The translations under genes and the position numbers were made by a program. A stretch of DNA of 64,000 nt, from NCBI GenBank assembly GCA_020137815.1, contig CM035354.1, forward strand, positions 124,001 to 188,000. Reading direction: 5' to 3'. Origin of the DNA: Hormiphora californensis. Its lineage: Eukaryota > Animalia > Ctenophora. How positions within the stretch are numbered: the stretch's first letter is position 1; each line of letters begins with the position of its first letter. The notes below the pieces were generated by a model that was not told the DNA's origin, ran no database searches, and saw nothing but the letters and a program-made list of their open reading frames with translations. This document shows positions 4,773 to 55,210 of this stretch, in pieces.

Positions 4773-4889
4773 TTAAGTTAGAATGGTTTAGAGAGGGATT
4801 GGCAAACGTTGCTGGCCCCGCGGGATAAGGCAGCGCTTTTCAATGTAATGAGAGGGAAAAAAATAAAAATGAAAATTGACGAATTCAAT

Positions 4890-6755: not shown

Positions 6756-9700
6756 CAAGATTACAAGATTACAAGATTAAAACAGAATTTATAATGTCAA
6801 TAAAATCAACATCCGCTCATACACTATACGAGCCTGGATATGCATAGTACAGTATGACAACACATAACCAGGCCCGGTAATAAATTAATATTACTAGTTA
6901 CCTCAAGCGGATTTCAACATTAAGGTAACGAGAAATATGTAAGCACATTAGGTACTGTCCGAATCATCGAGTCAATCAATAAATTTAAAAGTGTATTTTC
7001 ATAGTCATCTCACACATTGATATGATTGGGTGACACACGAATTTAATAGTAATTATAACACATGTAAAACAAGTCAACATTATATAACGCTGCAGCGATA
7101 TGGATTAAGCAGTACAGTAAAGGGACCCAGAGACCGATGTGATATTAGGTTGAAGTAAAAGGACCAGGAATGATTTTGAGAAGGGGAAAAGGGCTGATGC
7201 CGGAAGTGATGGAATAAGTAATATAGAGTAGAAGGACCCGGAAAACCGATGCGAAATTATGTTGGAGTAAAAGGACCCAGGACTGATATACAAGGCAATT
7301 ACTGTCCGTATGCTTTAGAAAGAGGTGTGTCTTCAATGCTGTTTTGAAAGATGATAGGATTCTGAGTCACGTATCGCTCGTGGTAATTCATTCCACAGTT
7401 TTGGAGCTACAATACTGAACGCTCCCTTGGTGTTGTCGTAGTGAAACTCACTTTCCGTATTTCCTTGAGTGCAGTTTCATCTTTGTCAATTCTGAGTGAC
7501 TGAACTTTCTGGGGTCGCTTCTCCAACATTTCAGCCATATAGGGGGGAGATAGTCCGTTTAGAGTCTTGATACCAGTAAACAAATTTTACTCTCATCGTT
7601 GTCTTACAGGCAAGAAATGTGATTCATTCTCAGTTTTGTCACACCACGTCTGCCCCTCTGCCGTATATAAATCTCGTCGCAGCGTTTTGTATTTTTGGAG
7701 TCTTTTTAGATCACTATCTTTCATAGAAGACACAGGGATTGCAGTAATCTAGCCGGCTAGGATGAGAGTAGTCACCAGCTTCGTTTTCTGCATCTTGTTG
7801 AGTTCTCCCGCAATCCTCCACATTTGCACCAGTTGAAGTTACATGCTCGACAACTTTAGTAACGTGATCAGACATGGATAGGGTACTGTCAAATATTACA
7901 CACACGTTTCTTGCAGATGGAGCGATTGCCGTTTCCTCTCTTCTGGATCAATTTGAATAGTCTCAGTTTCTGCTGCTTTGCTCCATTTACTCTTCAAGAT
8001 GAGACACTTCTGTTTTGTCAGGATTTAGTTTCAACATATTGTGGTGCCATCCACACCCTTATATGTGCCACACATTTCTGTAACCTATCAATGACATCAG
8101 CGATGGAGTCTGGCAGAAAGGAGATGTAAAGCGAGAGTATATCTGCGTACATATGGAGGCTGAGACCATATAGAGCAGCAATCTTTTCCAGATCCTTTGT
8201 GTACAAGATGAACAAAAGAGGTCCCAGAATGGATCCCTGGGGAACGCCAATCTCGATGGGCTTAGAACTAGACTCCATGGATCCAATCCTGACCCTAGCA
8301 GACCGTCCAGACAGATATGACTTTATCCATTTGAGAACTCGACCTCCAATTCGATATTCAGTCTCAAGTCGATTTAAGTTTGGAATGGAAATGGTGTCGA
8401 AAGCGGCAGACAAATCCAACAAACCCAAGATCACCTGGGATTTTTTGTACCTTGCATGAGGATGTCATTTCTATCTTCACTGTAGCAGTTTCGCAGCTAT
8501 GGTTAGTTCTGTAAGCAGATTGGAACTTAGCAAATAGATCATGTTTTTCTATGTTCCTATCAACTGGTCTGACACACACTTCTCTACACTTTCGAGAGGA
8601 AAGATAAGTTTGAGATGGGTCTATAACTCTTGAGCTCATCCGGATCCAGAGATGAATTTTTGTAAGCAGGTCTTATGATAGCTCTCTTCAGACTTTCTGG
8701 AACTTCCCCTTCTGATAAGCTCATGTTGACAATTTTTGACAGGAGGGGAACAAGATGAGGAAGTACTGCAGTTAAATCGAAGTAGGAAGTGGATCGAGAG
8801 CACAATGTTTTTGATTCATACTTCGGATTTGTTTACCAGTTGTTCATCAGACACAGGTTTAAACGATGAAATACAGGAGAGATTGGCGATTCTGGCGTCA
8901 AATCCGGAAGGAAAGGCAGAGTTTCCGAGAATGCTGGGTCGTTGCGAATATCATCGTAAATACTCTGACCTTCGAATGGAAGAAGTCGTTAGCATTCTGG
9001 TGTTTGGCAGGATCAGCAACGGTTGGTAGTTGACGGGGAGTTTTATCTTTACCAAGTAGGAGTTCAGAAGTTGATAAGTTGCAGAAGGATTTCCTTCGAC
9101 AGCTTCAAGACGTCTTCTAAAGTACTCTCTCCTCGCTTTTCGAAACACAGACCGTGCACATCGCACTTCTTTCACAACTCCAACTCAGCTCGATCAAGCT
9201 CTCAAAGGACACCCTGGTGGGCTTCCGCAGCTTTTTTCTGTAAAGCTTTTTGTACTGCGTTCAGCCTTGCGTCGACTCTCAGCACATTGTAGAGGCATTA
9301 TCAAACCATTGAGGTTTTCCTCCAACCGATAGATTTCCTCAAGAGGTGCTAGTTCATCCAATATATCAAGTAAAAGCTCCTGGTACATTTCAACGCAGTC
9401 AGCAAGAGAGCGGCCAGGAAACAGTGGTCCTTTCAGTTCAGATTTCTGGATCAATCTGTTATAGCTTCAGCTGTTATTTTTCTCATAGCTCGGCATGTAA
9501 CTGTCTTTTTCAGAGATGGTCGGTTTGCTGAACCACAGTGAACATTAAATGATACAAGAAAATGATCAGGAACCTCTGGAGTTGGTATAACATCTACATC
9601 ACTCAACAGATATTCATCTCTGCAAACCAGGTCAAGCAACCACCGTTTATATGAGTCGGCGTGTAATCTTCTGGTGCCAGTTATGATCTTCAACTATTTG

Positions 9701-11595
9701 CAATAGTTGTTCGAAAAATAAGCTGGGGGTTTTCAGCATGGATGTTAAAGTCGCCATGATGATTAGCAGGTGTCCATTCAAAGTGGAGAAAGCCGCAAAA
9801 AATTGTCGAACTCGTTAGAAGACAGCCTGTTTTGTTGAATCAGGTGGACGATACACAACAGCTACTCTAGTAAGTTGAACTCCGGGTCCTTCCACTGTAA
9901 CCACTAGGCACTCATATGACGAAAATTGGCGATTCGTCTTCGGTCGCTTCACAGTTAAGCCATTTTTGCATATTACTGCACACCTCCTCCTCTGGAACCT
10001 CTAGATAAACTTATCAACTGATAGTCAAATCAGAGATATGTCTTGAGATCGCAGTTCTTCGACATGAAGCCTGACTCAGTGATGACACATAAAATCAATG
10101 CACGTTCAGAAATAAGCACCATAACTCCTCCAGTTTGTTACGAGAGGGAGAAACAGTTCAAGCTTCAAATCGGAGATGAGGAACCCCTGACATCTCTAGT
10201 TTTTTTGCCATCCTGTTAATGACACTGACCCGAACGGGACACAGACGATAACCACTGTAGTGAGAATGGGAGCTGGATTTATGCTCCGATGAGTTATTGC
10301 AATTAACGCACAGTTTCGTAGATGTAGCATCGCATTGCTTCACATCATGGTCACCGCCACAACGTTTACAGACTGAGACTTCACTAGTACAGTCCTTTCA
10401 CATGGTTGAAACCCTGGCATTTATAGCATTGTTGAATGTGAAAGCGTCCTCAACATTTAGCCGTGATCTCCCGTAGTATAACTTACCATATCCAGTACAC
10501 GCTTTGGATGGCTACTGGAAGTCTAAGAGCCACATTGCACAACTGTTGTTTTTAAAGTGACTCTTTACATCAACCACAGTGGTGTTGCTAGATTTGATCA
10601 GGGTTTTGGATTCAAGGTTGTGCAAACTAATTTATTGATGGCGTCCTTTCCAACACCTTCGGTCTCCAGTGGTACGTTGAGAATAGTCACTTTAGCGGTG
10701 CTGACGACTGGTGAAATAGTGGCATCGGCAGAAATTTTCTTCTCGATAATCTCACTGATTGATGTCATATCAGTTGATTCTGGGAGGCCAATAATGATCT
10801 CATCAGACTTTTTGCAGTCAAGGAAGTTGATAGGGGTCGCACACAGGGCTACATCAAGGTTTTCAGCTATCCTAGCTGAATCATTGTTCGGGCAGCTAAT
10901 CCTCAACTTCATTGATGGAACAGTTTTCCGGATAGGTCGCGTTGTGGTTGGAGGTTGGATTACAGGGGTCTCTGCTGAACTTCCGGCCGCAGTCGCAAAT
11001 GTCGGAGGTGACGTGGAGGTAGTTGGAATCTGGGAAGCAGAGGGTTGGGAAGCAGAGCGTTGAGTTGCAGTTAACTCAGATTCAAGGGTATCCTGTGATG
11101 ACTGGGAAGCATGATTGGGTTGCAGCGGGGGGCCATTCGGGAAAAAGGATTTGAGAGCACTCACAATTTTCGACTCTATGCTAGACTCCATTTCCTCATT
11201 TAGTTTACTAACTCGACTTTCAATGGATTCATTTAGCCGTGTTTCAAGCTGAGGAACCAGTTTTGCAGTCAGAAAGCTGATCAGCTCTTTATTGCGCCAG
11301 ACTCAATGTCCTTAACCAGCACACAATGGTTGCACCACCAACTGGAAACAACAGTCGGAAGTGTGGATCGGTTAATGTTCGCAAAACCAGGATTAGCACA
11401 AGCTGGATGATAGTACCTGGAACATTTCAAACACTTGATCCGCGGGACTCTGTTGGTCGCCTTCTTCCCACACTTGCACATCTCCAGATCGTCCGGAGAG
11501 GTCATATCTTTGGACTGCCCTTCGTGGGCTGTTACATCAGCTTTATCCTAAAACTCAAATTAATTTGTTTAAAGTAGTGTTGAAAAGTTTGAAAC
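6752..11595 (-). mobile_element. Full-length but frameshifted L2/CR1-group LINE ('LINE A'): ORF1 with PHD finger and zinc knuckles (~11505-10158), ORF2 APE-RT (~10150-7310), (TCTTGTAA)n tail, leader-like 5' end
   Basis: CKCGK..CLKCSRYYHPAC..WWCNHC; CYKCQGFNH; YRPISNLSFLSK; QSAYR..HSCETA; LLDLSAAFDT; GVPQGSILGPLLF; HMYAD. Tail repeats (acaagatt) at 6755-6779. Confidence 0.88.
11554..11595 (-). other. Spliced-leader-like sequence copy at 5' terminus of LINE A
   Basis: GTTTCAAACTTTTCAACACTACTTTAAACAAATTAATTTGAG, identical over 41 nt to 37159-37199. Followed by TTTTAG, not a GT donor, so it is not an SL RNA gene. Identity with the ctenophore SL is recalled from memory. Confidence 0.8.
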
Positions 11596-22143: not shown

Positions 22144-24268
22144 AACTATGAACGTTTGTAGACTGGCGCGTTATGAAGTTGGCTTTTCCCAGCGCGAGCT
22201 GGGAACAGCCAACTGGAGTTTAATCGCCCGGCAGGGCGATTAAACTGGTTTAAATCCCGACGCCGATCCCGAGGCGCTAGCCGAGGGTGAGTGGGAGGTG
22301 ATTTAAACCTATAACGCGATAGGCTAACAAACGTTCATAGTTTATGAAACCCGATAGTAATTACACGCAAATAAGAGACACAACACAAGGTGAAACACAC
22401 AAGGACTGCTGTAGTCAACAGACGTCCCCAAACTGTGTGTAGACTAACTGGCACCTAGTTGCAACTGTTCCTTACATATTTGAGTAAGAGAGAGCAAGCA
22501 CGGTGCCCCTGAAGGAAGTTCCACCTCGACCGAGTCCCCCAGCAAAACGAACGGTTGTGTGACCTAAAGGGGACCTCTGGGAACTACGGAGGACCGTGGG
22601 GGAAAAGATTTAAAAGTAGCCTAAAAAATTAAAACGATAGAAAGATAGCTATCGTTTTTTCACTTTGAAAATACGACATTTCTTTAACAAAATCCTTGAT
22701 CAGGAAGATGCAATTAGTGTCTCCCACCTATTTTTTGACGTAGAATCGAATGCCGTTGAAGTCAAATCTCTAAAATGTTAGAAAAATGGTGAAAATCGCG
22801 TTTTTAGGTGTTTTTTGGTGAAAAAATCGTTCAAACTGGTACTAGATGATGAGATAGAGTCCCAAAAGTATGACAAATCGCTTTTTTGGGACCTTTTCGC
22901 CCTAGAAACAGATTTTTATGAAAATCTAGTTCAGCGCCTATTCTCTGTATACTTTCAAAGAAGGTGAATATTGCTCTAATTTAGCCAATTTTGAAGAAAA
23001 GTCATCCAAAACAGTACTAGATGATGAGATAGTGGCCCAAAAATATAACTAATCGATTTTTTGGGTCTTTTCCGTCCTAGAAACAAATTTGCATGGCGGT
23101 CGGATGATAAGTTTCCTCTCGGTAGGCCTCTGAAGTAGGTGGAAATAGCCAAAATATAGCGATTGCGGCAAATGAATGTGAATAAACGTTTACCAAACCC
23201 ACTTCATCATCATGTATGGCTCTTGCATAGTCCAGTAGCCCAGAGATAGGTCAAACATGATGCTAAAGTGGGTTTGGTCAACGTTTATTCACATTCATTT
23301 GCCGCAATCGCTATATTTTGGCTATTTCCACCTAGTGCAAATTTGTTTCTAGGACGGAAAAGACCCAAAAAATCGATTAGTTATATTTTTGGGCCACTAT
23401 CTCATCATCTAGTACTGTTTTGGATGACTTTTCTTCAAAATTGGCTAAATTAGAGCAATATTCACCTTCTTTGAAAGTATACAGAGAATAGGCGCTGAAC
23501 TAGATTTTCATAAAAATCTGTTTCTAGGGCGAAGAGGTCCCAAAAAAGCGATTTGTCATACTTTTGGGACTCTATCTCATCATCTAGTACCAGTTTGAAC
23601 GCTTTTTTCACCAAAAAACACCTAAAAACGCGATTTTCACCATTTTTCTAACATTTTAGAGATTTGACTTCAACGGCATTCGATTCTACGTCAAAAAATA
23701 GGTGGGAGACACTTGCATCTTCCTGATCAAGGATTTTGTTAAAGAAATGTCGTATTTTCAAAGTGAAAAAAACGATAGCTATCTTTCTATCGTTTTAATT
23801 TTTTAGGCTACTTTTAAATCTTTTCCCCCACGGTCCTCCGTAGTTCCCAGAGGTCCCCTTTAGGTCACACAACCGTTCGTTTTGCTGGGGGACTCGGTCG
23901 AGGTGGAACTTCCTTCAGGGGCACCGTGCAAGATTGGGGCCAATACACACATTGAGAGATATTGAACAGTAAAAGAGAGAATGAGAGAGAGAAACGAATG
24001 GAATGCGATTATTTTGTCTCTTGATGAGAGAGATAACATTGAAAAGTGTTGCAGATGTGTTCCCCTCTCTGTTATTGACAGAACTGTGTGTTTACACACA
24101 TTTTCATTACTTGGAAATTTACACGCATGTTATGAAAATGAAGAGAAACGCGTGAAAAAGGGCACTGGTCTGATAAATAGCGAGCAGGGTGTTAAATCCC
24201 CCAGCTCGCAGTTATCGAGTGCGCGTAAAATGTTCAAAAGACTGATAAATCAGCTATCGGGTTTCATA
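22144..24268. mobile_element. Multi-hairpin element (copy 2, diverged), interrupted by the 22499-23928 insertion
   Basis: Same stem architecture as 17684-18344. tatgaaacccgatag / ctatcgggtttcata inverted pair. Internal similarity (aagtgttgca...gttccc...agaactg...tttacacaca). Confidence 0.55.
22499..23928. mobile_element. Non-autonomous foldback element, Chapaev/Transib-like (CAC...GTG ends, 4-bp TSD, ~600-bp TIRs)
   Basis: caag|CACGGTGCCCCTGAAGG ... CCTTCAGGGGCACCGTG|caag. Arms near-identical, with an internal second inverted pair. Confidence 0.8.
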
Positions 24269-24425: not shown

Positions 24426-27400
24426 TCAAAACAGCAGCTCCTTCAGTGCAAAGAGCCAGCTCATGTAGGCATCATCGTTTGCAAAACCTAGCACCATCTT
24501 ACCGCACTTTCCTGATTTCCCCTTATCCGCCTGGTCTAGTTTAAACAGGGTGACTTCAAGTCTAGTTTTATCTCCTGTGGCAACTGAGAAGTTGCAGAGT
24601 GATGTTGTATTGCAACAACTCGGTGTCTTGATTGTGCTAAGGTGAAGGCTCTCCCTGAACAGATATGCCCTGGTGGGCTGATCACACCACGTGACTTCAC
24701 CATACAAAACGAGAGAAGTGGGGTTACCACTGGGGGGTTGATCTTCCTCCGCTAAATGGAGCAATCCGTTAATCCTGAGGAGGGTGTTTCGGCTGTGCAG
24801 GACCGCTTGGCTGACTACGGGCACCTCAAACACCCGCCATGTCCCCTCCAGCATGTCCTCAAAGAACAGCTTGTATTGGCAAAGTCGCTGCATAGGCTTA
24901 TTCCGGTAGGAGACGGCCGGCAGACGATCCCCGAGATCTTCCTGAATCTTTTTGAAATAGTCTTCTGATAATATTGATTCCAATCGGGATTGCATTAGAA
25001 TGAAGTCACCATACACTTTCAACCGTGGGCTAAACTCTGAGAATAGTTGGGCCAGTTTAAGAACCGATGAGTGGTCTTCCATAAGTTTGGCGCTGATTTC
25101 TAAAATCCCCTCCAGAGCCTCGAATGCGAAAATGAGACACGATCTCAAAGATCCATCGTGAGGTGTGTAATCTTGATCTTTTAGGGCAGCCCCAATCAGC
25201 CTATCTTTTAGGTGGTGAAGGGATGAGACGTATCCAGCTTCTGTCTCTTTAAACTCGCTCAGCACGTGAGTGAGCCGGGATGAAGCCTTGTCTCGATTGT
25301 GGTGCCTACAAATCGCAGCCTCAACCAAAAGAACCTGAGAACGTTTTTCCTCCGCCTGCGAAACCATGTCTTCAACATTTCTCAGATAGTCCGTAATGGT
25401 CGGGGTGAGCGGGCGAAATGATGGCCTTCGCTGGTCACTTCCCCTTCGTAATCCAATGTTGCTATTTATCCTGGTCCGTGAATCCACATTACTACGAGTC
25501 AGCGCTGCAAAGCTCTTCAACAGTTCCTCCAAGATTCGCTCAGATCCATCACCGGCTTGAGACTTGTAAAGTTGTAACGCGGACACATCACAGATCTCTT
25601 GTACCTCAAACGGTTCTGGGCTAAGTGATAAGCAGAGAATGGTGATCTTTTCCAGGGATGCAAGAGTTTCAACTGAACCCTCTGCTTCCTTAAATCGAGC
25701 CATGCTGTTGTCTAGGGACCGCCGGAATATCTCCACTTCATGGTTAATGAGAGAGGATAACTGCTGAGTAGCTGACACCAGGTCAGTCACGAGGCGAGTT
25801 ATGCACGTTTCCACACCCTGGACAGACCCAAGTAGTGATTCTGTGCCCATGGACTCACAAGTGCTCAAGTAGTGTTGGATGACCTGGCACGGGGCGAATG
25901 TTAGCCTCCTCCTGATCTTACTGTCCTTCCTGACTAGGTCCACTAGCCGGGAGGTCCGGGATATGTCATCGAGTGACAAGAGCGACTGAAACTCACGAAC
26001 CCATGACAGAATGTCATACTGGGTGTTCAAAACAAACTCCAGCCCCACTACTTTTTCATTGCTCTTCACCAATTCAGAAAAGTCCTTGGCTATGCGTGTT
26101 TCTAGAGCTGAAACCGCAACCTCGGCAGGACCTCTCCGCTCAATCGGTAGGGCGTCTCTCCGTTTTTCGATTTCCTGGAAGGAAATTTTAATAGCCTGGA
26201 GCATTTGGTAGGCCTCTTTTCTTCGTTCATCAGCTTCAGAGCTATCGGGTGTAAGCTCTGTCATCTTGGTCTCCAACTCAACCAGTCGATCTTCCAAAGA
26301 TTTGCAATCTCGATTAAGTTCGTTCCAGTTCCATTGAAGCTCTAGAGACCGTTCCATGACCAATTCGAGTTCCGAATAGTTCAGATCCAATTCTGCGATT
26401 GCCCTCATAAGACTCTTAGTGGCCATAACGAGGACTCTATCACAGAGTAAATCACTCGACAGGAGTTTCATTAGCTCTTCCCCTTTCATAACCAGCGATG
26501 TGTTAATAGGACGAATTGAGCCGGCCTGATCCAAGTATCGCTGTCGGGCAGTCTCCAGTGAGGGATGACAGTTCTCTTCGTCCACACGTGCTGCCTGAAA
26601 TTAACGAGTATCTTTCATTTCTGCACGGGTGAGTTATACAACTCTCATCACATTAATATTTATTTTACGATTAATGCTTCTTACCTCTTTTACAAAGCCT
26701 TTCAGCATTATTGGCTGAGCCTGAAGATGTCTATAAAAATGCCGACACTCGTTCCAGAATCCCTCAAACTTTAGTCTTCTCTCGTACCATCTGTCCATGC
26801 TGTTTGATGGGATATCCCCGCCCATCTGAGAGGGAACACACCGGGGCCCTCCCAAAACCTCCGCTAAGTTCTCGCTCGTGCAGTGGTCAACTTCGGAGAA
26901 TACCTGCTCGTCTGAGAATGGGGGGGGGGTTCTGATAAAGTTAGTGCCAATGGAGGCCGCGGTATAGGGGGTGACAAAGCAGGTAACAAACGACTTCAGA
27001 AGATCTCTGGTATGATATACATAAATTGTAAACCTTGATTACTATACGGTCTTGCCTCTCCTCTGTTTTCAAAAAAATCCCCAAGCCAAACTTCTTACCG
27101 ATTGATAGCATTGAAAGGATGTCAGATGATTTTTTCACAGTAGTCGGAACCTCCTTTTCCCACACGACTAAGAGTTTCAGATTGTAGTGTCTGTAGGCTC
27201 GGAATAGTTCAACAAGCTGTGCATGTATTCCACCACACCAGCTGGAATCCACCATCTCACATAAAACAACCCTTGAGTGGGAAATCATCAATTTTATTTG
27301 TTTTTTTACACATGACAGACGCCTATAATACATGAGCATAATTAACTTATAGGGATTATCAGGGGAGAAAATGCAAATTGTTTGTCATTAAGGGTAAACA

Positions 27401-28317: not shown

Positions 28318-29132
28318 GGCGTGTGCAGCAATATAATACATATACACAACAGATCTTTATAGGACAGTGAAGTAAGGCAGGGAAGCATGAGGAGATATAT
28401 AGGATGCATATAACAATCTCACTTTGTAATATGACGCGTTATAACCTGGGCTACTGCTCAAGGTCAGAGTTATGAGTTTCGGGAAAGTGCACTTTTTATT
28501 TCAGGACGAAAAAACACATTATGGTGCTATTGTAGCCGCAGCTCACAGACCCCTGTCTGGCGCCGCAGATCCGGGACCCCATCTAAGCACACTGTCATGC
28601 ACCCAATGTGAGAATGAAATCGGGTTCTGGCGCCGCCAGACAGACAGACAGACACACACAATGGAACCTACCTTTTAAAGGCCTCTGAAGAACTCATATC
28701 CACTTTCAAGTCTCATACATGGGATATTTTAAGTTCAATAGATATCGACAAACATTCCATGAAACATGTGTTGCGTCCAAAATACAGTTGTATTACTTCG
28801 TTGTGACAAACAAAAGACGAAATGTTTCCCCATGTTTACGTTTTACACAAAATGTATGACAAATGAAAACAAGCTGATTGTACCAAATACCACGGATAAT
28901 TACCTACAACCGGCCGTGCAATGTAGATCAGTATACACGTGCAATAAAAACAAAGTATAAAACTAAAAATATGATTTCTGTGTGTCCCACACCGACCTTT
29001 GCTCCACCCTCTCTCACATGACATCACCGAATCAGACCATGTACATTTAGTCCATCAAGTGGGACTTCTCTCTTTTTAGAGAAAAGGAACAACCCAAACA
29101 ACACCAATAATATATTAATTGTCCCCTTCTCT

Positions 29133-31123
29133 TCACGGAGCAGAAGTAGGAGAAGAACTGAGACTGATTTCGGCAGCGGCTTTAGCTTCGCTGTAATTGT
29201 GAATGATCGTTGAGGCCCCAATTATCGAGCAGCCAATGGCAAGGAACAATACCTGAAAGAATTGGGAAGCCAATTACCCACTTGTTTGATTTGTTTCAAA
29301 TGAAAGGCATTGGAAATACCTATGTACTCATGACTCGATCTACCGAACCCTCAGTCCTCACAGAGCGTGGTGTAAACCACACAACTTATGTCTCATTATA
29401 CCTTAAGAACTAGGTCTTTGTTATTCCTCATTTCGTCGAATATCATTTCAGCAAAGGTAATGTAAAGGAAGAAACCGGTGCTTAGCCCTTGAATTATTCC
29501 TGAAATGATAACACTTCATGAATTCTCGTCTTTGAATAGTTTAGCCAAATTTGCTACCATTGTAGTTGACAATATATGTGCAACCATGCAACTGAACTGT
29601 CAGAGCATTGGCCTGACCCTATTCTGACTTGTTGAGTCAACAAATTCTGACCCTATTCTGACCCTATTCTCATTTCGCGGAGCGCACGAGAACTGTCATG
29701 GTCAGAGCATGATTGGCTTGGCAACAACTGGATAGGAATTGTACCTGAAACGAGGGCAACAGTAACAGCATCCAGAGATGCCATTCCTTCCAGAATCCCA
29801 ATAGCTACGGCGATTCCTATCGGTGTACCGATACAAAACACACTCATGTGAATAACTATGCCTCTACGGGAAAACGGGGGGGGGGGGGGGGGGGTTAACA
29901 AGAATTCCCTGTCTGAAGGTGTTTGTATGTCTAAATCATTAAAGCATGCTAGGGACCAAGTAGGGACCGTGTGGGATGAATCCTGTTATATTAAGGGGTT
30001 TGGTTAATGCGGAGAAGACACGAAGAAAAAAAAAGAAGAAAAAAAAGGGGTTTGGACACTTAACATACTTGATTTGCTGTTCGGCTTCAATTAATCGAGC
30101 TCCTACAGCAAATGCGACCACACATTTGTGTATAAGAATGGCTCCTGCTAGCTGCATAAAAACACTCGACCTTGCTTCCACACCTATGGCAAGGCCTTCA
30201 AAGATGGAGTGGATGAGGAGTGCGAATATTAGTACTCCAACTCCTTTCCTTATCTGCGTGGAAAGTTAAGTTAACCAGCCAATTTTATCAAAAGTCAATG
30301 AATCAAAGATAGCAATACGCTGTGATTTGTGAAGTTACCCCCACACTGACAGTAAACTAACCTGTTCTGAATCGGTTGGGCTTTTCGGTGATTTAACTAC
30401 ATTACCATTAGTTTTAATACCGTCATCTTCATCATCATCTGTAGGACACGCCTGAACACATCCCTTTTCAGAATTAGCTTGATGATGCATTTTCATGTTT
30501 TTTGTCAGACACGGCTCGTGGTTCGAGCATTAGTTTGGATTCCATGATATAAAAAGAATTGAAAAGCTGTTTGTCTTTTTAGTTGCTATAATACCTCGTG
30601 ATGATGAGAATGCCCATGACCGTGTGTGACTGCTTCAACCAACAGAATTAGTATAAAACCAACACACTCCAAAATCTCAGCCAGTGGCAAGGCCTTTAAG
30701 AATTCATTTTCTGTACTTCTTTTCCATATATTAAGCTCCATCGCCACCTAAAAGTATGATCAGTATAATTTAATTATTGACTGTTCATACTCTGTCGCGC
30801 ATAAACATGATAAAAGTTAAAACTCTGTCTGGTGGTGCGAACCCAATCTGAGCGCACTGCCATCAAAATGGCAGACAGTTTTAAATACCCACCTCGGGTA
30901 CTAGGTGCATGAAGCACGTCCCAAAGAATACACCCCCTCCAAAACAGCTGGCTATGCTGGTGAACCGAGCCGTGTTCTTCATCTTTTTGAACCGAATTGG
31001 CAGGAGTCCAAACAGGAAGGGCACCACAAACATGATCGCCATTCCACCACATTTCACCCAGATTGAATGTTTGCTAGTCTCCGAGAGATTGTCCTCATCA
31101 TGTTTAGTGTTGTTGAATATCAT
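29133..31123 (-). CDS. ZIP (SLC39A1/2/3-like) zinc transporter, ~7 exons
   Basis: SCFGGGVFFGTCFMHLVPE; His-rich loop HGHGHSHH; ALLIHSIFEGLAIG; AILIHKCVVAF; GTPIGIAV; QGLSTGFFLYITFAEMI. Confidence 0.9.
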
Positions 31124-34100
31124 ACTAGACAAGAATGAAATATAATCAAGGTTAGATCTACTCTAACTAAGGTTATCTACACTGTATTTTAAATAATCTG
31201 TTGGAGATCAACTAGAACTGATCATATTGTACGATGGTAAACGTCAATATACGTCAATAAACGAAAAGATTTTAAGACGGAGTGAAAGATAGAGAACCTA
31301 AGATTAATTAAAAATTCTTTAACAATGTATCACGTACAAAAGAGTAGTTATTATACACAGCCATGCATCTATTGCACTCATGTACGTGGTGTGTGTTAGT
31401 AAAACAAGCAAGAACGTTGCACTGTACAACGTCAACAAATTACAAAGAAGGAGCAGATATACACACACTCGCTAACCATGACCAAAAATCCGTGGCCCAC
31501 TCTGTACAAGTGCAAGTGGTTGTTTACTGTACCATGAGAAGGAACAGCTATACATAAAAGTGTGTGTGTGTATGATTTTGTAATGTATTCTAACACCTAG
31601 TACCATGAGCCATGTGGTGGCCACACGAGGTTAAACAATAATAATAATAATAATAATAATAATATTCCGCGCTTATATACCGCCCATACCCGACGGAAAC
31701 ATGTCAAAATATTGGCGATGTTCCGACGAGTCATCAGAGCGGTATATCCTAGAGTAAAAATATCGCACACGAACAATTCTGGTTGAAAAAGACAATATAT
31801 GGAAAACCAAATTAACTGGACTTATCAAACTGAGGGAATAACTGGTCCCATAAACCTGTAGATATAATTTTAAACACGCTATACTCACACCTGCTCAAAA
31901 AAGGATACCAGATAGTGATTTAATAACATGACTAGAGAGAGGATGAGACTGATTGCCCGCAGACCCCACAACTACAACAAACATTACAACTCAGCCATGG
32001 GTTCCCCATCACCCACTCCAAATGCACCAACGAAGAGATGTGTTTTCAGGCGAGCTTTAAAGGTATCAACGTTGGGGATCGACCTTAACTCGAGGGGTAG
32101 CTCATTCCAAATAGCAGGCAGAAATACTGATAGTCTCCTACGTCTCAATTTAGAATTGGCTTTGATACTGGTCATCTTGGGGTGTTTTAATCTGTAAGGA
32201 TCAATAACACTAGTCATCCTTGTTGTCCTGGAGACTCCCCAGCTTTTATCAAGAGGAACCATTTCCTGGAGGTAACCTGGTGCCGTTCCATAGACTATCT
32301 TATAAGCGATTAGACAGGCTTTGAAGTCCAGTCTGTAGGAGATGGGTAAAATATGACACTGCCTGAAGTATTCCGAGTAATCCTCTTGATGCCCATGGAT
32401 GTTGAATATAAAGCGTACACAGGAGTTTAGTGTTTTCTGGAGCCCACCAAGAACTCGGGCCGGAAGTCCACAGTACAGAATATTACTGTAATCAATCCTC
32501 GATATAATCAATTGTTTCACCAACATTATCTTCGTTTGAATATCAAAACATCTGTGTAACTGCCAAAGATTCCGTAGTATCAGCCCACACTGTTTCCTCA
32601 CATTGTTAACCTGTCGTTCAAGATTTAGGTTGTGGTCCAAGAGTATTCCCAAGGTTTTCCCATCTGCTCCACTACATTCACTGGGGAAGATTTCCGTTCC
32701 TCCAAAGTTGATAACTGGATCGAAAGAGATTTTACTCAAAGAACTGCGCTTTCCAAGCAGGATGAATTCCGTTTTGGCCTCATTACACTTCAACCACTGC
32801 CCCACCATCCACCGCTTCACCTTCGCCAGACACTCCTCAATATCCACCTTCGTCCTAGACCAGCCAGTAGAATCCGTAGGAACCAGACTCACATAGAGCT
32901 GGGAGTCGTCTGCATATAACTTTATCCGGAGTCCATATGGTTCCACAATATCTTGCACAGCTTCAATGTAAAGTAGAAACAAAATAGGACCAAGAAGAGA
33001 CCCCTGGGGCACTCCACAGAGTAAGGCCAGGGTATCCGAGAGACAATCACCAACCGAGACTCTAAAAGATCTGGAACTCAGGTAGCTCTTAAACCATTGA
33101 AGAGGATCACCATCCACTCCAAACCGTTTCTGCAACACCTCCAACAACTTTTCATGATCCACCGTATCAAATGCGGCACTCATGTCCAAACAGATCAGAG
33201 CAACAACATTTCCTTTATCCATCTCACCTAATACATCATCAAACATGCTGGCTAACAGAGTTTCGCAACTGTGACCAGCACGATAACCGGATTGATGCTT
33301 GCCCAGAAGTGAATTGCTTTCAAGGTACTCATTCAGCTGCGTGAGCACCACCTTTTCTAGGAGCTTAGAAAGGAATGGGATATTTGAGACAGGACGATAG
33401 TTACTGAGAGCTTCCCTATCTCCGTACAGATTCTTGATGGTAGGAAACACGATAGCTTTCTGGAGAGATTCCGCAACTGTAGACTGATGTAGAGATTGGT
33501 TTACCATCGATGTTAATACCGGAGCAAGATCCCTAATGCACTCCTTTACTACCCAAGTGGGCAACGGATCAAGGTCACAATGTTTGCTTGACATAGACTT
33601 CACCACCTTAACAAGTTCCTCCTCCGACATCTCTTTGAATTCCTTCCATGTTGAATGACAGGCTTTTCCGGGTTCCTCAAAGTCGCCAGCTTGCTTCTGC
33701 TCCTCATTGACTTGGGTTCGAATTTTTTCCACTTTGGAACTAAAGAACTGGGAGAAATCATCTGCCAAGTTCTTGGTGTTTGTTGTTTCAGGAAGAATTG
33801 TTTCAGCTTTTCCAAGGAGTTTCTGGAGCTTACTTTGCAATTTCTTTGGGTCACCTTTGGCAGCAACCAAGTCCTCTTTAATGAAAAGTGACCTCTTTTC
33901 CCTATCCATCTTTCCATACAGTTTCTTCAGGTCATTAAATCTCCGTTTCGCATCCACAGTTCCAAGTTTCCGCCAACACCGTTCTGCATTCCTCCTCTCT
34001 CGAAGTAATCCTCTAAGTTCCTCATCCCTCCATGGCTTAAACTTTTTACCAGTCCTCACCCGTTTCCTCGGTACTCGCTTCTCCACTATACCTTCCAGCC

Positions 34101-34844
34101 AACGATAGAAATTCACCACGCCCTCCTCTGGATCCCTACCTCCTTCAAAATCTGCCTTCCGCAAGTCCTCTTTAAATCCTTCCAAATCCACTGACTTGTA
34201 ATCCATGTATTCTCGATGCACTGATTTCTTCAGACAGGAGTTCGACAGGTCAGGTCTCACTTGAATCCCAAACTGTACTAGGAAGTGATCTGATGTAGTA
34301 CCATTAGGAAATATGGAATATGTCACCTAGAGAAGTTTCTCTTGTAGTTATCACCAAGTCCAAGGTTCCTCCCAGCTGGTGAGTAGGCAACATTGGTACT
34401 CTTTGTTGAAGATCAAATGAATCCAGCAGCTCCAAAAGTTTCCTTGCATAGAAGTTATTATCATCTTGCACCTGGAAGTTTAGGTCACCAGCGATGATCG
34501 GAGTACCTTGCTTCATAACAAGCTCGGAAAGGTAGTCACCAAACTCCGACAGGAAAGTTGCTTCTGTAAGTCTCGACCTCGGTGTGTACGGAGGACGATA
34601 GACATTACAGATTCTCTTCGGTTGATCTCTGTCACTGATCAGAACCTCTTGTACTTGAAAAGACTTATACTTGGTCTTCACTGGACACTGCCGAAGAACT
34701 ATGCCATCTCGAAAAAGTATTCCGATTCCTCCACCTCCTCTGTCTCCTCTGGGGCATGAGAAAATGTCCCATCCATTATCTCTGATTTCTTGAAGTTTTC
34801 CAGTGTCCGTTGATTTCAAAAATGTCTCCTGTATAAGACAAATA

Positions 34845-35709
34845 CAGTCGGACCCCGATTTAGTGGCATCCTCGGGGGAAAGAAATCCTGCCACTAAATC
34901 GGGGTGCCACTAAATCGAGGTGAGCCATATTTGGCCCATAAAAACCTATTTTATGCCCAAAATGCTATACTAAGACTAAAGACACCTCTAACTGTTATAT
35001 ATGCAATATTCATGTATTGATGACATGATCATTTCTGATTAGAAATAGAAAACTATCAAATAACTTTTTCAAAAAAATTATGAAAAATTTTCTAAGTTAT
35101 ACCAGCCCGTCTGATTTGTGTTTCGAATCGGTGCAGCTTCCTGGATGTCCTGTCTAATTAGCGGGTTCGAAACGAACCGATACGTGATACCATGCCGAAT
35201 CGGGGCACCCTAAGCGGGTGAGGAAGTACATATCAAAATTTCAAAATAACTTTTTTTCTCAAAATTTATGGGGAGCACCGATCAAAGTGCATTGACAATC
35301 GTACTGTAAAATTTTGCAAAAAAAAGTTTTAAATTTTTTTTAAAGGTATACCAGCCACGTCCGAATCGTGTTTCGAATCGGTACATCTTATCGCATGTCC
35401 TGCTGCTAATTAAACGGTTCGGAACGAATCGAAACGTGATCCCCATCGAATCGAAATTTTGACGCTTGATGAACTTATGATTTAATGACCCCATGGGGAT
35501 CACGTATCGGTTCCGAACCGTCTAATTAGCAGCAGGACATGCGATAAGATTCACTGATTCGAAACACGATTCGGACGTGGCTGGTATTCCTTTGAAAATT
35601 TCAAAAAAATTTCACAAAAAAAAATTCAAAAAAATTTTTGGGGGAAAAATATCTTGCCACTAAATCGGGGTGCCACTAAATCGGGGGCCACTAAATCGGG
35701 GTCCGACTG
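34845..35709. mobile_element. pogo/Tc1-type MITE inserted in LINE B ORF2 (related remnant at ~48510-48595)
   Basis: ta|CAGTCGGACCCCGATTTAGTGGC ... GCCACTAAATCGGGGTCCGACTG|ta. Excision restores the APE reading frame. Confidence 0.9.
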
Positions 35710-37158
35710 TATCACAATCCTCCTCTTCCAGATGCGAAATAACACCTCCAGTTTTGTTAATAAGAGAGCGGACATTTAGTGTCCCAATCTTCCAAGTCTT
35801 TTCCTGTGTAGTTCCTCCTTGGTCCTCGTCCAGTACAGGTTTTTTTCCTCTTTGCTTACACCTGCAGTCCTCTCCATAAGCCGTGCTCGTTCATTGATGT
35901 AGGAAGGGCACCACATACTTGAAGCCGTATGGGTCTTCGAATACTTCTTGTCCTCTCTTGATCCTCCAACTTCACAGTTCACACATTTCATCCTACCAGT
36001 CTCGTTGTTCTTCTTTGCTCTACAGTCTTTCGTCTGATGCGATCCAGCACAGAAGCAGCATATTGGAGTATCCTTTTGGGGGCAGTAAATCGATCCTGCT
36101 ATATGCCCAAATCCTTGACAGTGAAAACACTGTATCACATGATACCTGTTCTTGACAAAGTGTTGCCGAAGACCCAAGTTGATCTTATCCCCGTTAGTAG
36201 ACAAAAGCCTCCGGATCTCTGGAGCCATCTGGATCACTGCATACCTGTCTCTTTCGCTCACAAACACCACCTTCAACTTCTTGTCCTCATGATAAAGTTT
36301 TCTGATATCCACATTCTTGTCCAAAATCGCTGCCAGGATAGTCTCCTTTTTCAGTAGGTCTGGGTCCAAATCATTTATAGTTACCTTTGGTTCAAGCTTC
36401 TTGGCCTCCTCTGAGAAAAATGACATGGAACAGTCCTGTGCAAGTGGAGTCAAAACTTTCTCTGCTTCCTTCATCTGGTCTTCATCAGGGAAATACAGCC
36501 GGGTATGGTCACTGTTCACTCTGGATCTCACCACCGGTATCGTCTTCAACGCAGTTTCCACTTTGGGTTTGACCTCATCAGTCCACTTCTTCGCACAGAA
36601 TCCTGGCCCTCCTTCCTCATTGATGCCAGTTTTAATATTCACATAGTGTTTCATCGTAGGTGTAACCGGTTCCTCTGGATCACCACCACCAATATCACTT
36701 CTACTATTCTCCATAGGTTTGACCAAAGCAGAGATAGTGGAAACCAGATCCTTGTGCAGCTTTGCAAACGACTCTTTCAGATCAGTCTGGTCTCCAGGAA
36801 CAGAAAACGGTGCCGACGCCGGAAGCATGTTGTAACAGGCTTTGAGAAGATGCCACAACTGAGGTTTATGGACAGACGACGGACAAACAGTGTCACCCCT
36901 CCCAAGGCACACTAACAAATCACTACCCTTATAATCATTACTAAATACTTCTCCTGCTAACAGGTCTTCAAAATCACTCTTAGTGATACATATGTCATAA
37001 TTACTCGTAACGGTCATCCTAAAACACCCGTTGCACGCCGGCCAACAACAAACTCTTCACTGATATCACTCGTAAGTTAAGTTAAAGTAGGCCTAACAGA
37101 GATCTAAAAGATTAGAGAATAGATGCTAACACAGTTATCAGGAACGATTGACGGCAAA

Positions 37159-37199
37159 CTCAAATTAATTTGTTTAAAGTAGTGTTGAAAAGTTTGAAA
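37159..37199 (-). other. Spliced-leader-like sequence copy at 5' terminus of LINE B
   Basis: TTTCAAACTTTTCAACACTACTTTAAACAAATTAATTTGAG followed by TTTGCC (no GT donor); 141 nt upstream of the ORF1 ATG. Confidence 0.8.
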
Positions 37200-40100
37200 G
37201 CATAATAATTAATTGTGAAATAGTACATGTGTGGGTCGTGGGGTTTCACTCCACTGCATATTATATGACCTAACTATTTATCCAACGTGGTAAACCACAT
37301 AGAAGACTGGGGAGAAGATTGTGATACTGATGAAAGTACTGATGAAATTGTTTCAATAGAAAAGTTGGTGACGCGGTCACCCCTACACTAGGGCCGCGCG
37401 AAGCGCGGCAAACGAAGCCGGCGAAGCCGGCTGAGTGTAGGGGATCTAATCACCAAATAGAAAAGTAAAATATAGTTCTCTCCACAACTGAAGATGACTG
37501 ACATAGTTCAGCCTAAAACTTTACATAATATACCTGGACAGACTACTAGTATGTAGTACAAATTTAGGTAGCAATATATGACAGTATTATGGTCTATCTA
37601 TATGGTGAAGCTTTACGTAAACACGCAGTACAATCTTTAAAGACTAATGACAAACGACAGCATATGTAAAGCAAGACTGAGTTGTGTAGGAAACAATATT
37701 GGGTGTACAAACTCAACAAATCTTCATGTCTCAAGATTCGTTTCAAATTCAGACCATTAATAGGATTAAGAAAACTTTGCAGGTTCAACAACTTTTCTTT
37801 CAGATGTATTGTACGCTATTCGCTAATACTCGCCTTCAATTACTCTTTATGTATGCGTATCTGAAGTCCTTATAAGTATATTAGTTAGTCCAAATGGCAT
37901 ATAATATACGGCGTGGGTCTATCATGCCAATGCTCTGACCACAGTTCTGACCACAGAATCTGAATAGGGTCAGGCCAATGCTCGGACAGGCGTGGGTAGT
38001 TGTGAACAAATTTGATCTAAGAAAAACACTAAATAGAAACAATGGTCTGCTGTAATTTACTAAACTTTATTGGCCGATCCAAGTCAAATATAACTTCTTT
38101 GCATACCGATAAAGCTTTTAACAAAGGACTAGCAGAGTTTACAATATGTAATATTAGCATGTCTGGCTCCTACCGCAGAAAGCCTAACAAAAGATGGATC
38201 TGTTATTATACTGGTGTCATGGAGAACTATGACTATAGTTAGGAGGATAAAGGCTGCCCCACTAACATAACAACTCACACATGGGGAGCTGTCATTTGTG
38301 AGAGAGTGAGATAGAGTGAGATAGATATGTGAGAGAAAGGGAGAATGAGAGAGACAGAGGGAGAGACAGAGCTGAGGGAGATAGTTAGAGAGTGATATAG
38401 AGAGGGGAGAGTGAGACAGAGGGAAAGAGAGGCCGAGTGAGATAGAGTGAGAAATTACGTGACATAGACAGATAGATAGAGAGATTAATTGAGAGACTGA
38501 GAGAGAGAGAGAGAGAAAGACATTTAGGGGCCTTACAAACACAGCTAATACTATATGAGGGAAATAGTGAATAGAAGGAAACTATCAATAACATGTTGGA
38601 GCTAGCTAGATTAAAATAAACATGAGGGTCCAGTGGGCACAAAGCCAAAATCGCCCCGCCACAGTGGCTATCTATAGCAAATTAAGACGAATTTAAAAGT
38701 ATCATATTCATTTAGGTCTGCGGTTAATACTTTGAATTGAGTTACAAAATTGAGAAGTGAGAGATTGGACAGAATAAATATTAAAGCTTTCGTCATCCAC
38801 ATGAGTATCATGCTGCAGTAGATTTTCGTGGAATCTTATTTGCCTGAATGAATTAAGCAACATACATCTCCTGGATCTCCCTCGAAATTCTATTCTGTGG
38901 CCCAGTTGTAAAAGCTGTAACCGCGATACACTACACACCCTGGGCCACACTGATACGTGTGAATCACACTGTGGCACTGTGATTGTGTGTGTGTTCAATT
39001 GTCCTTCGTCAAATAATAAAAAGAAAGAGAGCTTATGAAACTACCACCTCTAGTTCTAATATATATCTTCTCTATCCAGATGGCATTGCCAGCTGTTTCA
39101 CGAGCGAGTGATCTCTCAATTCAGTTACGCTCTTGAGTCTATGACATAAATCGGCATATGGTGAATTGAAACAACAAAAAAGCCGTTAAGATAGCGGATT
39201 GGTTTGATATCAGATAAGACTATTGTTGCTGTCAAGTGGCAGTGATTTTTGGTCTGCTCAGGCACGCGTGGGGTGAGTCATCCAAGCCTGAGAAACAAAA
39301 ACAAGGCTGGGGAGGTGGTTTGAGTAAGTGGTCCTAGCTCCCACGTAAGATAAAATACTCGTAATTCAAATAATTCTGTTTTGTGCAGATAAACTCAAGT
39401 TGTAATTAAGAAGATAAGGTCTGCCCATGTTTACATCATACATTTACAGCATGTTGAGAGAGACAGCAATAATACACTCACATGAAATTCCCCGCACAAA
39501 ACTTGTAGGTCCTCTAAATGTATAAAGGCCATTAAGTGTACAACTACCTCTCACTGAAGCCATGCTACTCAGCAAAAATCTCTTGAAAGGATAGTGACAT
39601 GTTGTGTACATCTGTCAGGCCAATGCCCTGACCACAGTTCTTGCGCTCATTTGAGAGAAATGAGAATAGGGTCAGGCCAATGCTCTGACATGTGTACATT
39701 TCATAGATTCTCTGTCAGATCATTGGCCTCAAAGCGCGAGAACATGGGCCTGACAGTAGATTCTTTGACTGAAGTGTGCGTCATATGTAGGTACGTAGGT
39801 CACACATGTTTAAAGGATGGCTCATGATCAGATTCAAATTATTCAAAGGTTGTTGTCGTAGTAATGGTCAATACTGTTGAATTGAGAATTCCCTTGATTA
39901 ATTTGACATCTAGTCGAATGAACATGTAGCTGTATAAAGTATGTAATATTAGCTGTATGACCCAGACGAATCACTCATATCAACATGACAAAATGAGCAT
40001 AATTTGTGCGTCAGAGTGTATGATGTGTAACCGTTTATATCTATATGAGAACGAACGTCTGATGAGAGAACTAGGACAGATAAAATTATGGAAAACGGGA

Positions 40101-49091: not shown

Positions 49092-49682
49092 TTAACCCGA
49101 AGCACCCTCTTCTCTCTTCTTATCTGCCAGCCCTGTGACACACTCAAACAATCTCTTGTCAGTTATGTCATTCTCATCTATCAAATATGATTCACCGTTC
49201 GCTTCAAATGACTCAAATACACCAACATTAACCGGAACACGAATATCTTTCGGATCAATTGTCCTCTCGTAAGATCTACAAAATAGGCTCAGTTTTGTTG
49301 CCACTATCTTATCATCTCCCTCCATTCTCATTTCAGTAACATAATTGCGTGTTGTGTAGTAAATTACCCCTGTGTATAGGTAGGTAAGGGAGATAGGGGC
49401 TCCTGTTGCTAGTGCCATCCATACAGATGAGAGGTGGAACTTTTTAGCAGCTATCATTGGGGCGAATATGGTGGTAAATCCAGAGGATGCGAGGGTGATG
49501 TAACGAGATCGCTTCACTCGAGGGGAGAGTTTTCCCTTGTAAGAATCACCAGAAAGACAGCGTGGAGAAATTACTTTAGCTGGGTTTATCAGTCGAGAGA
49601 TACAACAACGGATATTCATGGCCATGCCTGGAAAGTACATGTTGTTAGTTTCGTTAAAATCAAGATCAATTTGAGCAGCCAT
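49092..49682 (-). CDS. TMEM70: TMEM70-like mitochondrial ATP synthase assembly factor, intronless
   Basis: YKGKLSPRVK..SS, two TM segments, TRNYVTEM, DIRVP...VFESFEANGESYLID pattern. Confidence 0.8.
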   Translation of the reverse strand: MAAQIDLDFNETNNMYFPGMAMNIRCCISRLINPAKVISPRCLSGDSYKGKLSPRVKRSRYITLASSGFTTIFAPMIAAKKFHLSSVWMALATGAPISLTYLYTGVIYYTTRNYVTEMRMEGDDKIVATKLSLFCRSYERTIDPKDIRVPVNVGVFESFEANGESYLIDENDITDKRLFECVTGLADKKREEGASG

Positions 49683-49832
49683 ACCCAAAAAAATTCCACA
49701 CTGAAAAGGGAAACTCCAAACACAACCACATGGCTAATTCGAGTAAACTATACGGTTTACAATAGATAGTCGATATCACTAACCAATGAACGCAAACATA
49801 ACCCTATCGGGTAGCCCTAATCCGTCTCAAAC

Positions 49833-55106: not shown

Positions 55107-55210
55107 ATTGTGGTTTCTTATTGTTTAGTGATTTGTTTTTACATGCTTAATAACAATGTGTTTTAATAACCAAACCACTTACTTCCCCTCACTCCTCCCT
55201 AGTTCTCGTT

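Follow-up and report, generated by a model that had tools for sequence, protein, structure and literature searches.

A LINE needs either a promoter inside its own RNA or borrowed transcription followed by 5′ trimming; trans-splicing normally discards the 5′ end of an RNA. In R2 an HDV-like ribozyme at the 5′ end cuts the element out of its co-transcript, and a ribozyme of this kind is reported to release L1Tc in the same way. The elements CRE, SLACS, CZAR and NeSL-1, which use a restriction-like endonuclease, sit inside spliced leader (SL) genes, where a leader exon adjoins the end of the element. SL-trans-spliced Penelope-like elements have reportedly been described as well, although they did not come up in the literature searched here.

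In parasitic flatworms, partial SL sequences lie near LTR and LINE elements (597 loci, ≤500 bp), and integration of trans-spliced retrotransposon RNA was suggested as their origin in a remark on filtering (Calvelo et al. 2025, PMC12582326, as excerpted). These copies are similar to ours in being genomic leaders near retrotransposons; still, in the excerpted text the leaders are partial and related to the elements by proximity only, with no junction anatomy, empty allele or family comparison, whereas the ctenophore LINEs have a near-complete leader exactly at the 5′ end of a full-length element. In dinoflagellate retrogenes trans-spliced RNA is reverse-transcribed, so that the leader becomes DNA, and recycling by further splicing was proposed; the relics have host-gene cargo, break off at an AG inside the leader and accumulate as tandem arrays (PMC3229502, PMC12014239). 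LINE B, described below, shares with such retrocopies a 5′ DNA leader, an intron-free junction and an empty site almost without leader, but the LINE leader is single and nearly whole and its cargo is an autonomous element. The SL is present in ∼30% of reads of Hydra TE transcripts (PMC12220107), and repeat-associated trans-spliced transcripts occur in Heterodera (PMC6362198); in the sections of these reports that we used, TE RNAs exploit host trans-splicing at the RNA level, with no genomic leader-headed copies. For the genome of Hormiphora californensis 718 leader copies were reported and treated as spliced-leader loci, with no link to retrotransposons in the available part of the report (PMC8527503). 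Our observations at LINE heads give these ∼700 genomic copies another reading, suggesting that many of them are LINE 5′ ends.

In the literature searched, no LINE copies headed by the SL were described for ctenophores; genomic leaders may be mentioned in the supplementary material of PMC8527503 or in Derelle et al. 2010 (PMC2844618). What is new here is the ctenophore case, with base-level junctions and an empty allele, while the idea itself has already been voiced in print, in passing, for flatworms. An exact copy of the SL exon heads LINE B and its relatives, and we consider it likely (probability of about 0.85) that the element RNA receives its leader by trans-splicing, as host mRNAs do, and is then reverse-transcribed to the end and inserted. 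Direct support comes from the identity of the leader, the junction at the exon's AG without SL intron, the lack of SL-gene flanks, the empty allele and the copies at other sites.

Two LINE families in the window

LINE B (31637..37199, minus strand) is a full-length APE-type non-LTR retrotransposon, polymorphic as an insertion, in the window, i.e. the whole 64-kb stretch of H. californensis DNA analysed. Its 5′ end is a copy of the spliced-leader exon (37159..37199, minus strand), which ends at the exon's AG and comprises 41 of the 43 nt of the SL-gene exon as we read it; 41/41 nt coincide with positions 4–44 of the published leader (PMC8527503). The leader is followed, on the same minus strand, by a 141-nt 5′ UTR with a T-rich start (37018..37158), by ORF1 (35776..37017), an open frame of 413 aa with putative C-terminal Cys/His knuckles, by ORF2 (31984..35794), encoding an APE endonuclease and a reverse transcriptase (RT), and by a tail of nine TTA units (31637..31663; AAT on the forward strand). 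ORF2 has Pfam matches PF03372, PF14529 and PF00078 (Exo_endo_phos and RVT_1), the APE domain lying at its N-terminus. It is interrupted by one frameshift near 34317 and by a MITE of 865 bp with terminal inverted repeats and a TA duplication (34845..35709, no strand assigned); against an intact relative it aligns in three pieces, residues 1–28, 29–203 and 204–979. Copies of LINE B in other contigs are in frame, with neither MITE nor frameshift, and the MITE-free joint 34842–35710 is present in runs X5, X6 and X7. The sequence-only reading, which had called ORF1 intact and ORF2 broken by these two lesions alone, is borne out by the reading frames and by the alignment with the relative; its suggestion of a young family fits the presence/absence polymorphism as well as the MITE-free, in-frame copies.

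Searches returned 18 relatives of ORF1 and 738 of ORF2 (120 of the 738 were listed). Alignment of the possibly gag-like ORF1 with its relatives shows invariant Cys/His columns; zf-CCHC matches in the relatives are weak (E-value 0.006–0.98), with Atlas leads at 0.87–0.88. Four distant LINE-like loci with 30–37% identity, found with ORF1 in bacterial MAG records (L122–L125), were set aside, and the ORF1 search of viral contigs gave no confirmed locus. L2-group LINEs are characterized by a short tandem-repeat tail, absence of target-site duplication and microhomology at the junction. LINE B has a (TTA)9 tail and 4 nt of 5′ microhomology, and a search for a target-site duplication found none at either LINE B or LINE A; its SAAFDT motif makes LINE B a putative member of the L2 group, our RT tree covering relatives that bear no clade name.

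LINE A (6760..11595, minus strand, 3′ end approximate) represents a second family, with a PHD-finger ORF1 and an RT. Its 5′ end matches the SL gene over 42 nt (11554..11595, minus strand). The leader is thus perfect while the element is heavily frameshifted, a combination that counts against the trans-splicing reading. The 41-mer is present exactly twice in the window (11554–11594 and 37159–37199, both minus strand) with no mismatches, while none of 100 shuffles matched at ≤3 mismatches. A 3′-anchored search for partial leaders (12–30 nt, 0–6 mismatches) found none in the window beyond the two sites, and no SL relic was seen at its intronless host genes. At the DNA level LINE A and LINE B share a 44-nt identical block, the leader plus TTT, and a 39-nt patch in the RT, and are otherwise without similarity; upstream of the leader they have no common sequence. 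Thus, the statements made from the letters alone, that both elements start with the same 41 nt, that their similarity ends at the leader's 5′ edge and just after TTT, and that LINE B is a distinct family, all stand, the last with RTs 39–41% identical and with different ORF1s and tails. It is also correct that the full-length LINEs carry the leader while LINE C and the CRE-like piece do not. Since LINE C starts within the RT (ORF2 residue 519 of 979) and the CRE-like piece also begins inside its RT, so that both are without any 5′ end, the absence of the leader there carries little weight. Both LINE A and LINE B are co-oriented with the nearest downstream gene (ZIP and myosin), a sample of two being too small for interpretation.

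The leader in SL genes, mRNAs and other LINEs

The SL RNA genes (L088 and L089) form a tandem unit of 778 bp in which conserved upstream DNA is followed by the leader, GTAAG and a structured tail (fold z −4.1); an Rfam search matched no family. Our metagenome search required the exact 22-nt end of the leader, and leaderless copies or copies with a diverged leader were unable to appear in it. Among the matches listed, the leader formed the contig end in 109 of 121 loci; 59 of 69 such contigs scanned matched ordinary host Pfam families and none matched an RT or endonuclease, which identifies the sequence as an mRNA leader. Of the 12 metagenome loci listed with a flank, L019, L067 and L090 were mRNAs with spurious 5′ extensions. 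The leader pattern had no match in viral contigs or genome contigs.

Four LINEs of the LINE B clade (L039, L028, L043 and L065) were found among the listed matches with perfect leaders of 40–43 nt and unrelated flanks. Their ORF1 proteins are 44–84% identical to that of LINE B, and the first 140 nt past the leader are 51–90% identical, compared with 44% between LINE A and LINE B. In a quick RT tree they fall into three sub-branches of a single supported clade that excludes LINE A, whose own branch is long and of unsure placement. Three further flanked elements in the same list are also leader-headed. All nine flanked copies listed have a single near-complete leader, with a retrotransposon as cargo where the cargo was identified; neither truncated tandem relics nor host-gene cargo of the dinoflagellate type was seen in any of the nine. 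The single-ORF proteins of L015 and L072 received no assignment from Pfam or Atlas and are presumably ORF1-like; the 300 nt past the leader in L082 and L086 gave no element identity. The leader is therefore carried by more than the LINE A and LINE B copies, and the part of the earlier claim that denied a one-off chimera holds; what was termed leader capture is better described as probable trans-splicing of LINE RNA, a strategy that may be general among the LINEs of this genome.

In the leader part outside the search pattern we observed no mismatches in 118 nt across six flanked copies listed. The constancy of the leader beside diverging UTRs and ORFs makes its repeated renewal from SL RNA likely. 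It could be argued instead that an ancestor gained the leader once, and that the leader is now inherited as element DNA with an internal promoter and no splicing in each cycle. The position of the junction is indeed conserved within the pairs LINE B/L039, L028/L043 and LINE A/L072, and the T-rich start recreates the AGTTT start of the SL gene itself. Such a start is present in eight of the nine flanked element copies (two of the nine having no assigned identity) compared with three of 112 mRNA-like contigs, among the matches listed. There are also motifs at a fixed distance from the junction: GAWGTAACMRCCC of LINE A (11526..11538, minus strand), 15 nt past the leader, recurs in L072, L015 and L082 at +15 to +17, and GTGTYAG at +26 in the 5′ UTR of LINE B is common to L039, L028 and L043. 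Ordinary trans-splicing does not predict the T-rich start or these motifs, which by their sequence could fit an initiator with a downstream promoter element. In addition, GAG, with which the LINE leader ends, is a poor splice acceptor. Still, we consider a single ancestral gain improbable: it would have to keep 118 unselected nucleotides free of mismatches beside UTRs only 51–90% alike, and to leave an identical leader in LINE A and LINE B, whose RTs share ∼40%. Furthermore, in one X11 contig (n = 1, shorter arm of 27 letters) the leader is followed directly by sequence from beyond a later AG of the LINE B 5′ UTR (37126..37127, minus strand), with 33 nt skipped, a join such as splicing would produce.

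The insertion junction

Another individual has an allele without LINE B. It is represented by record 17 of X6, one of the sequencing-run contig sets (X runs) used for LINE B, whose DNA label was guessed; the contig has just 11 letters separating 31627 and 37196, runs ungapped from 37196, and flanks the empty site with arms of 728 and 156 letters. An empty-site check had been set beforehand, with the leader expected to be absent, and 37 of the 41 leader nucleotides are missing. The other four (37196–37199) are present in the empty allele as 5′ microhomology, and so may derive from the target site.

On the occupied side, record 8 of X1, a run that is possibly the source sample itself, is identical to 37188–37394 and includes 12 nt of the leader. 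The six X1 pieces listed as extending to the junction all run on into the leader. Loose ends of X1 at 37159 and 37199 are dominated by two SL-gene flanks, as in L088/L089. None of the 24 pieces listed out of 3,803 spanned the leader–UTR junction with 31 letters to either side of it, and no spliced LINE B RNA read was seen in these contigs, labelled DNA by guess.

Chimeras of the U6/L1 type, in which a whole small RNA is fused to a 5′-truncated LINE, are a precedent for template jumping by an RT. At LINE B we found the leader exon only, with no SL intron, on a full-length LINE, and assignment to this type was rejected. A jump of the cDNA from the 5′ end of LINE RNA to leader RNA through a shared AG, or an RNA ligation, could account for the AG common to both at the junction, and the LINE could natively begin with the initiator-like AGTTT. 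We give this explanation very little credence, as the exon end forms the junction in every case, without the SL intron, on full-length elements, family members have the junction in common, and six of six X1 pieces entering the leader would make a rare accident the usual path.

Site-specific insertion into SL RNA genes, with the leader as target site, has parallels in other trans-splicing lineages, and a CRE-like fragment lies in the same window; as in CRE, SLACS, CZAR and NeSL-1, a leader exon stands at the element's end. However, LINE B has an APE rather than a restriction-like endonuclease and an ordinary target, the LINE flanks have neither the upstream DNA nor the intron of the SL gene and so do not mark insertions into SL genes, and the empty allele, which retains just 4/41 nt, refutes such an insertion for LINE B; it is hardly credible for the LINEs generally. 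The chance that assembly mis-joined an mRNA leader to a repeat is negligible, given the exact X1 record and the same structure at other sites in the independent assemblies L039, L043, L065 and L028, even though three of the flanked loci listed are mRNAs with a spurious 5′ extension.

A possible life cycle

In the reading that we prefer, trans-splicing of LINE RNA, the spliceosome would add the leader, reverse transcription would halt 0–3 nt before the cap, and the cDNA end would join the target through the 4-nt microhomology, with no target-site duplication. The 5′ end would then possibly be set without the element's own promoter start, as in R2 and L1Tc, with the host spliceosome and SL RNP in place of self-cleavage.

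The least certain step is the expression of daughter copies. Transcription might start upstream, by host read-through or from the flank, with re-splicing at the leader's own AG rebuilding the same 5′ end, the route that we favour, at slightly less than even odds; it is weakened by the GAG leader end, the putative host acceptors in the window being YAG. An internal promoter within the head motifs is rather unlikely, and it is unlikely that a few master copies with an outron sustain families of dead daughters. Tentatively, ctenophore LINEs could follow a self-renewing, promoter-independent cycle in which the element's own trans-splice site re-caps passing transcripts and rebuilds the exact genomic RNA. 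If so, most of the hundreds of dispersed comb-jelly 'leader loci' would mark the heads of retrotransposons, and with every insertion a new site for trans-splicing would arise close to host genes.

Persistence of the LINEs in many intact families despite a host-leader start shows how a LINE can live in a trans-splicing animal. As an exact tag of complete insertions, the leader makes insertion counts and truncation rates directly measurable. Caution is needed with long-read gene models anchored on leader loci, which can be mis-joined.

One more putative acceptor, judged by its shape, is TTTTAG (37019..37024, minus strand), one base 5′ of the ORF1 ATG of LINE B; it is kept in L039, L028 and L043 and resembles the putative acceptor before the start of host PMS2.

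Leader-headed LINEs in the window and the empty allele of LINE B

Two non-LTR retrotransposons, LINE A (6760–11595, − strand) and LINE B (31637–37199, −), start with the same 41 nt (the leader), located at 11554–11594 (−) and 37159–37199 (−) with no mismatches. There was no third site in the window; a 3′-anchored search of the window for partial leaders gave nothing beyond these two sites, and 0 of 100 shuffled controls matched. At the DNA level the two elements have in common a 44-nt block (the 41-mer plus TTT) and one 39-nt patch in the reverse transcriptase (RT) region. LINE B, a putative member of the L2 group, has an open ORF1 of 413 aa; its ORF2 (APE endonuclease and RT), mapped in three pieces to that of the intact relative L039, is interrupted by an 865-bp TA-flanked MITE (34845–35709) and one frameshift. 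In other copies the MITE is missing (joint 34842–35710 in three of four sequencing runs), and so is the base gained at 34317 (four of four runs). These observations bear out the sequence-only reading, which had described two exact 41-mers, an open ORF1 and an ORF2 broken by a MITE and one frameshift.

In LINE A, ORF1 has a PHD finger, and the RT is 39–41% identical to that of LINE B. Many frameshifts, which may stem from age or from sequencing error, are present in LINE A, yet its leader is perfect; on its 3′ side LINE A adjoins the end of a CRE-like element (about 4900–6750, +). The CRE-like piece and LINE C, a further 5′-truncated element, both start within the RT.

It had been proposed that an allele without LINE B should be free of the leader as well. 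We observed such an allele in record 17 of run X6, which has the organism label of run X1 but comes from a different sample and study: record positions 300–1027 correspond to 30887–31627, and positions 1039–1194 to 37196–37351. All gaps of this record are confined to 37227 and 37259; therefore it is ungapped from 37196. LINE B and 37 of the 41 leader nucleotides are absent, so the 41-mer was not retained; the joint was placed from record coordinates, not from its letters. The four leader letters kept are 5′ microhomology. Between the two sides of the joint there are 11 letters, apparently the number expected for 31628–31638, and no target-site duplication was found at LINE B. Record 14 of run X5 starts at the same place, but comes from the same sample.

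The leader and the SL RNA gene

The 41-mer represents positions 4–44 of the published H. californensis spliced leader (SL); according to the available part of that report (PMC8527503), 56% of Iso-Seq reads carry the leader and the genome has 718 copies of it, with no connection to transposons made there by the authors. Metagenome contigs scanned with the leader's last 22 nt yielded at least 121 loci (80 taken whole, 41 with 300-nt flanks). Among the matches listed, the leader was at the contig end in 109 of 121, while 12 had at least 5 nt of non-leader DNA upstream. A Pfam scan took in 72 of the 121 loci, three of those flanked; of the 69 mRNA-like leader contigs scanned, 59 matched ordinary host families and none matched RT or endonuclease. 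The median distance from leader to first ATG was 11.5 nt in mRNA-like contigs versus 141–188 nt in B-clade LINEs, and another AG occurred within 6 nt past the leader in 45 of 112 mRNA-like contigs (both among the matches listed).

Two of the 12 flanked loci, L088 and L089, are tandem SL RNA genes, in which conserved upstream DNA ending in CAG is followed by the leader, GTAAG and hairpins (fold z −4.1). They lie on one contig with a unit spacing of 778 bp and have a UUCG-capped hairpin and one more hairpin; no Rfam family matched them. The consensus of X1 loose ends at 37199 and 37159 equals their upstream and downstream sequences. Since both genes read leader and then GTAAG, in agreement with the X1 loose ends, the exon ends at the leader's AG, and the TTT that follows lies outside the SL gene.

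Other leader-headed copies and their head sequences

Leader capture had been proposed to be more than a one-off event, and this holds: the leader-headed state is real and general, spanning two or more LINE families and several subfamilies. The flanks of all leader-headed element copies differ. Four flanked loci are B-clade LINEs, with ORF1 identity to LINE B of 84% (L039), 44% (L028), 44% (L043) and 47% (L065); of these, L043 and L065 are full-length elements that carry (TTA)n tails. The single-ORF element L072 and LINE A have 40 nt after the leader in common; two further flanked leader-headed copies, L082 and L086, fall outside the B-clade, SL-gene and mRNA groups. Three candidates (L019, L067 and L090) were rejected as mRNAs with spurious extensions.

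In flanked copies the match between leader and SL gene spans 40–43 nt (35 in L086). The portion of the leader not fixed by the search pattern had 0 mismatches in 118 nt in six copies; the next 140 nt are 51–90% identical to LINE B. Because the leader is identical on diverged elements, sequence comparison argues that it would be renewed from SL RNA rather than inherited. A quick RT tree places the B-clade copies in three sub-branches within a clade of 38 rows (support 97); LINE A falls outside this clade, and its long branch is unsure.

Two pieces of run X11 (organism B) extend from the LINE B 5′ UTR into the leader by 11–17 nt. In one contig of this run the leader is joined to position 37125, the skipped 33 nt ending in AG. 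In run X1 all six junction-reaching pieces extend into the leader, in no case by 31 letters (24 listed of 3803 pieces), and no loose end marked a leaderless copy among 18 listed of 121; together these are a weak hint against leaderless copies.

A T-rich start (three or more T in 4 nt) was seen in eight of nine flanked element copies (L082 and L086 counted) and five of six families, versus 3 of 112 mRNA-like contigs among the matches listed (Fisher p 2e-6 by family); AG+TTT reproduces the start of the SL gene itself. The motif GAWGTAACMRCCC is located at +15 to +17 in LINE A, L072, L015 and L082, and in 0 of the other 111 mRNA-like contigs among the matches listed. GTGTYAG occurs at +25/26 in LINE B, L039, L028 and L043, and also in two mRNA-like contigs, at +29 and +50 (among the matches listed). 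Such fixed spacing suggests that the head may be core-promoter-like or splice-defining.

In L043, a LINE otherwise intact, ORF2 contains a Gly-rich unit of 12 residues that is repeated in tandem and in frame; the repeat lies between endonuclease and RT. L082 has 280 nt of upstream flank, and other contigs of its source data set look like mRNAs; it could be an unspliced read-through transcript, DNA or a chimera. At 12786–13585 (+) lies a 5′-truncated single-ORF element that ends in a (TTA)n tail and is 82% identical to the leader-headed contig L015. The single-ORF protein (L015/L072) has 25 relatives, mostly on 0.9–2 kb contigs, and received no assignment from Pfam or the Atlas; elements of this type are possibly non-autonomous ORF1-only retroelements with LINE A's head motif. 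LINE-ORF1-like sequences in bacterial MAG records (L122–L125) are probably eukaryotic contamination.

Proposed mechanism, known systems and neighbouring genes

Retrotransposition of trans-spliced LINE RNA explains the leader-headed LINEs best (probability about 0.85). Firm ground is given by the exon-exact junction, lack of SL-gene context, absence of the leader from the empty site and the many families. LINE RNA would receive the leader by trans-splicing and be copied to within 0–3 nt of the cap, and the cDNA end would join the target through microhomology. In Hydra, trans-splicing affects about 30% of TE reads, according to the available text of PMC12220107.

The more novel possibility is that the leader frees the element's cycle from dependence on a promoter. 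Several features speak against a simple loop: the last letters of the leader are GAG, where putative host acceptors of the window have YAG, and the copies have T-rich starts and fixed-distance motifs. Daughter copies may, tentatively, be expressed by re-splicing of RNA started upstream. Some 540 nt separate the end of LINE B from a ZIP zinc-transporter gene downstream of it on the same strand (29100–31101, −), and a RhoGEF gene is upstream of LINE B, also on the same strand; this gene order would be compatible with read-through. Expression from an internal promoter is somewhat less likely than re-splicing, and a supply of RNA by outron-bearing masters slightly less likely still. The polymorphic LINE B insertion may lie in the outron or promoter of the ZIP gene.

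In flatworms, Calvelo et al. 2025 (PMC12582326, in the part available) discarded 597 loci where a partial leader lies close to an LTR or LINE element, and suggested in one sentence an origin from trans-spliced retrotransposon RNA. From the accessible text of the respective reports, dinoflagellate retrogenes bear truncated tandem relics (PMC3229502, PMC12014239) and trans-spliced transcripts of Heterodera overlap a CR1 repeat (PMC6362198). The available parts of PMC7986045, PMC4558846, PMC12460157 and bioRxiv 10.64898/2026.05.21.726589 have nothing on leader-headed LINE copies, and our literature search found no description of SL-headed LINE copies for ctenophores. The proposed mechanism works like SL-relic retroposition; unlike there, the cargo is an autonomous element. 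LINE B is not of the CRE/SLACS/NeSL type.

No leader relic was found in the window upstream of the long uninterrupted ORFs of PMS2/MutL (52581–55106, +), RhoGEF (24426–26600, −) and TMEM70 (49092–49733, −), so the window gives no sign of a leader-tagged host retrogene. A multi-exon gene in three diverged tandem copies, with acidic, Ser-rich ORFs and repeat families D8–D18, occupies 55150–59950 (+). A minisatellite array with a 33-bp unit lies at 1–1110, and long near-perfect inverted-repeat elements of MITE or foldback type at 22498–23929 and 3388–4792.
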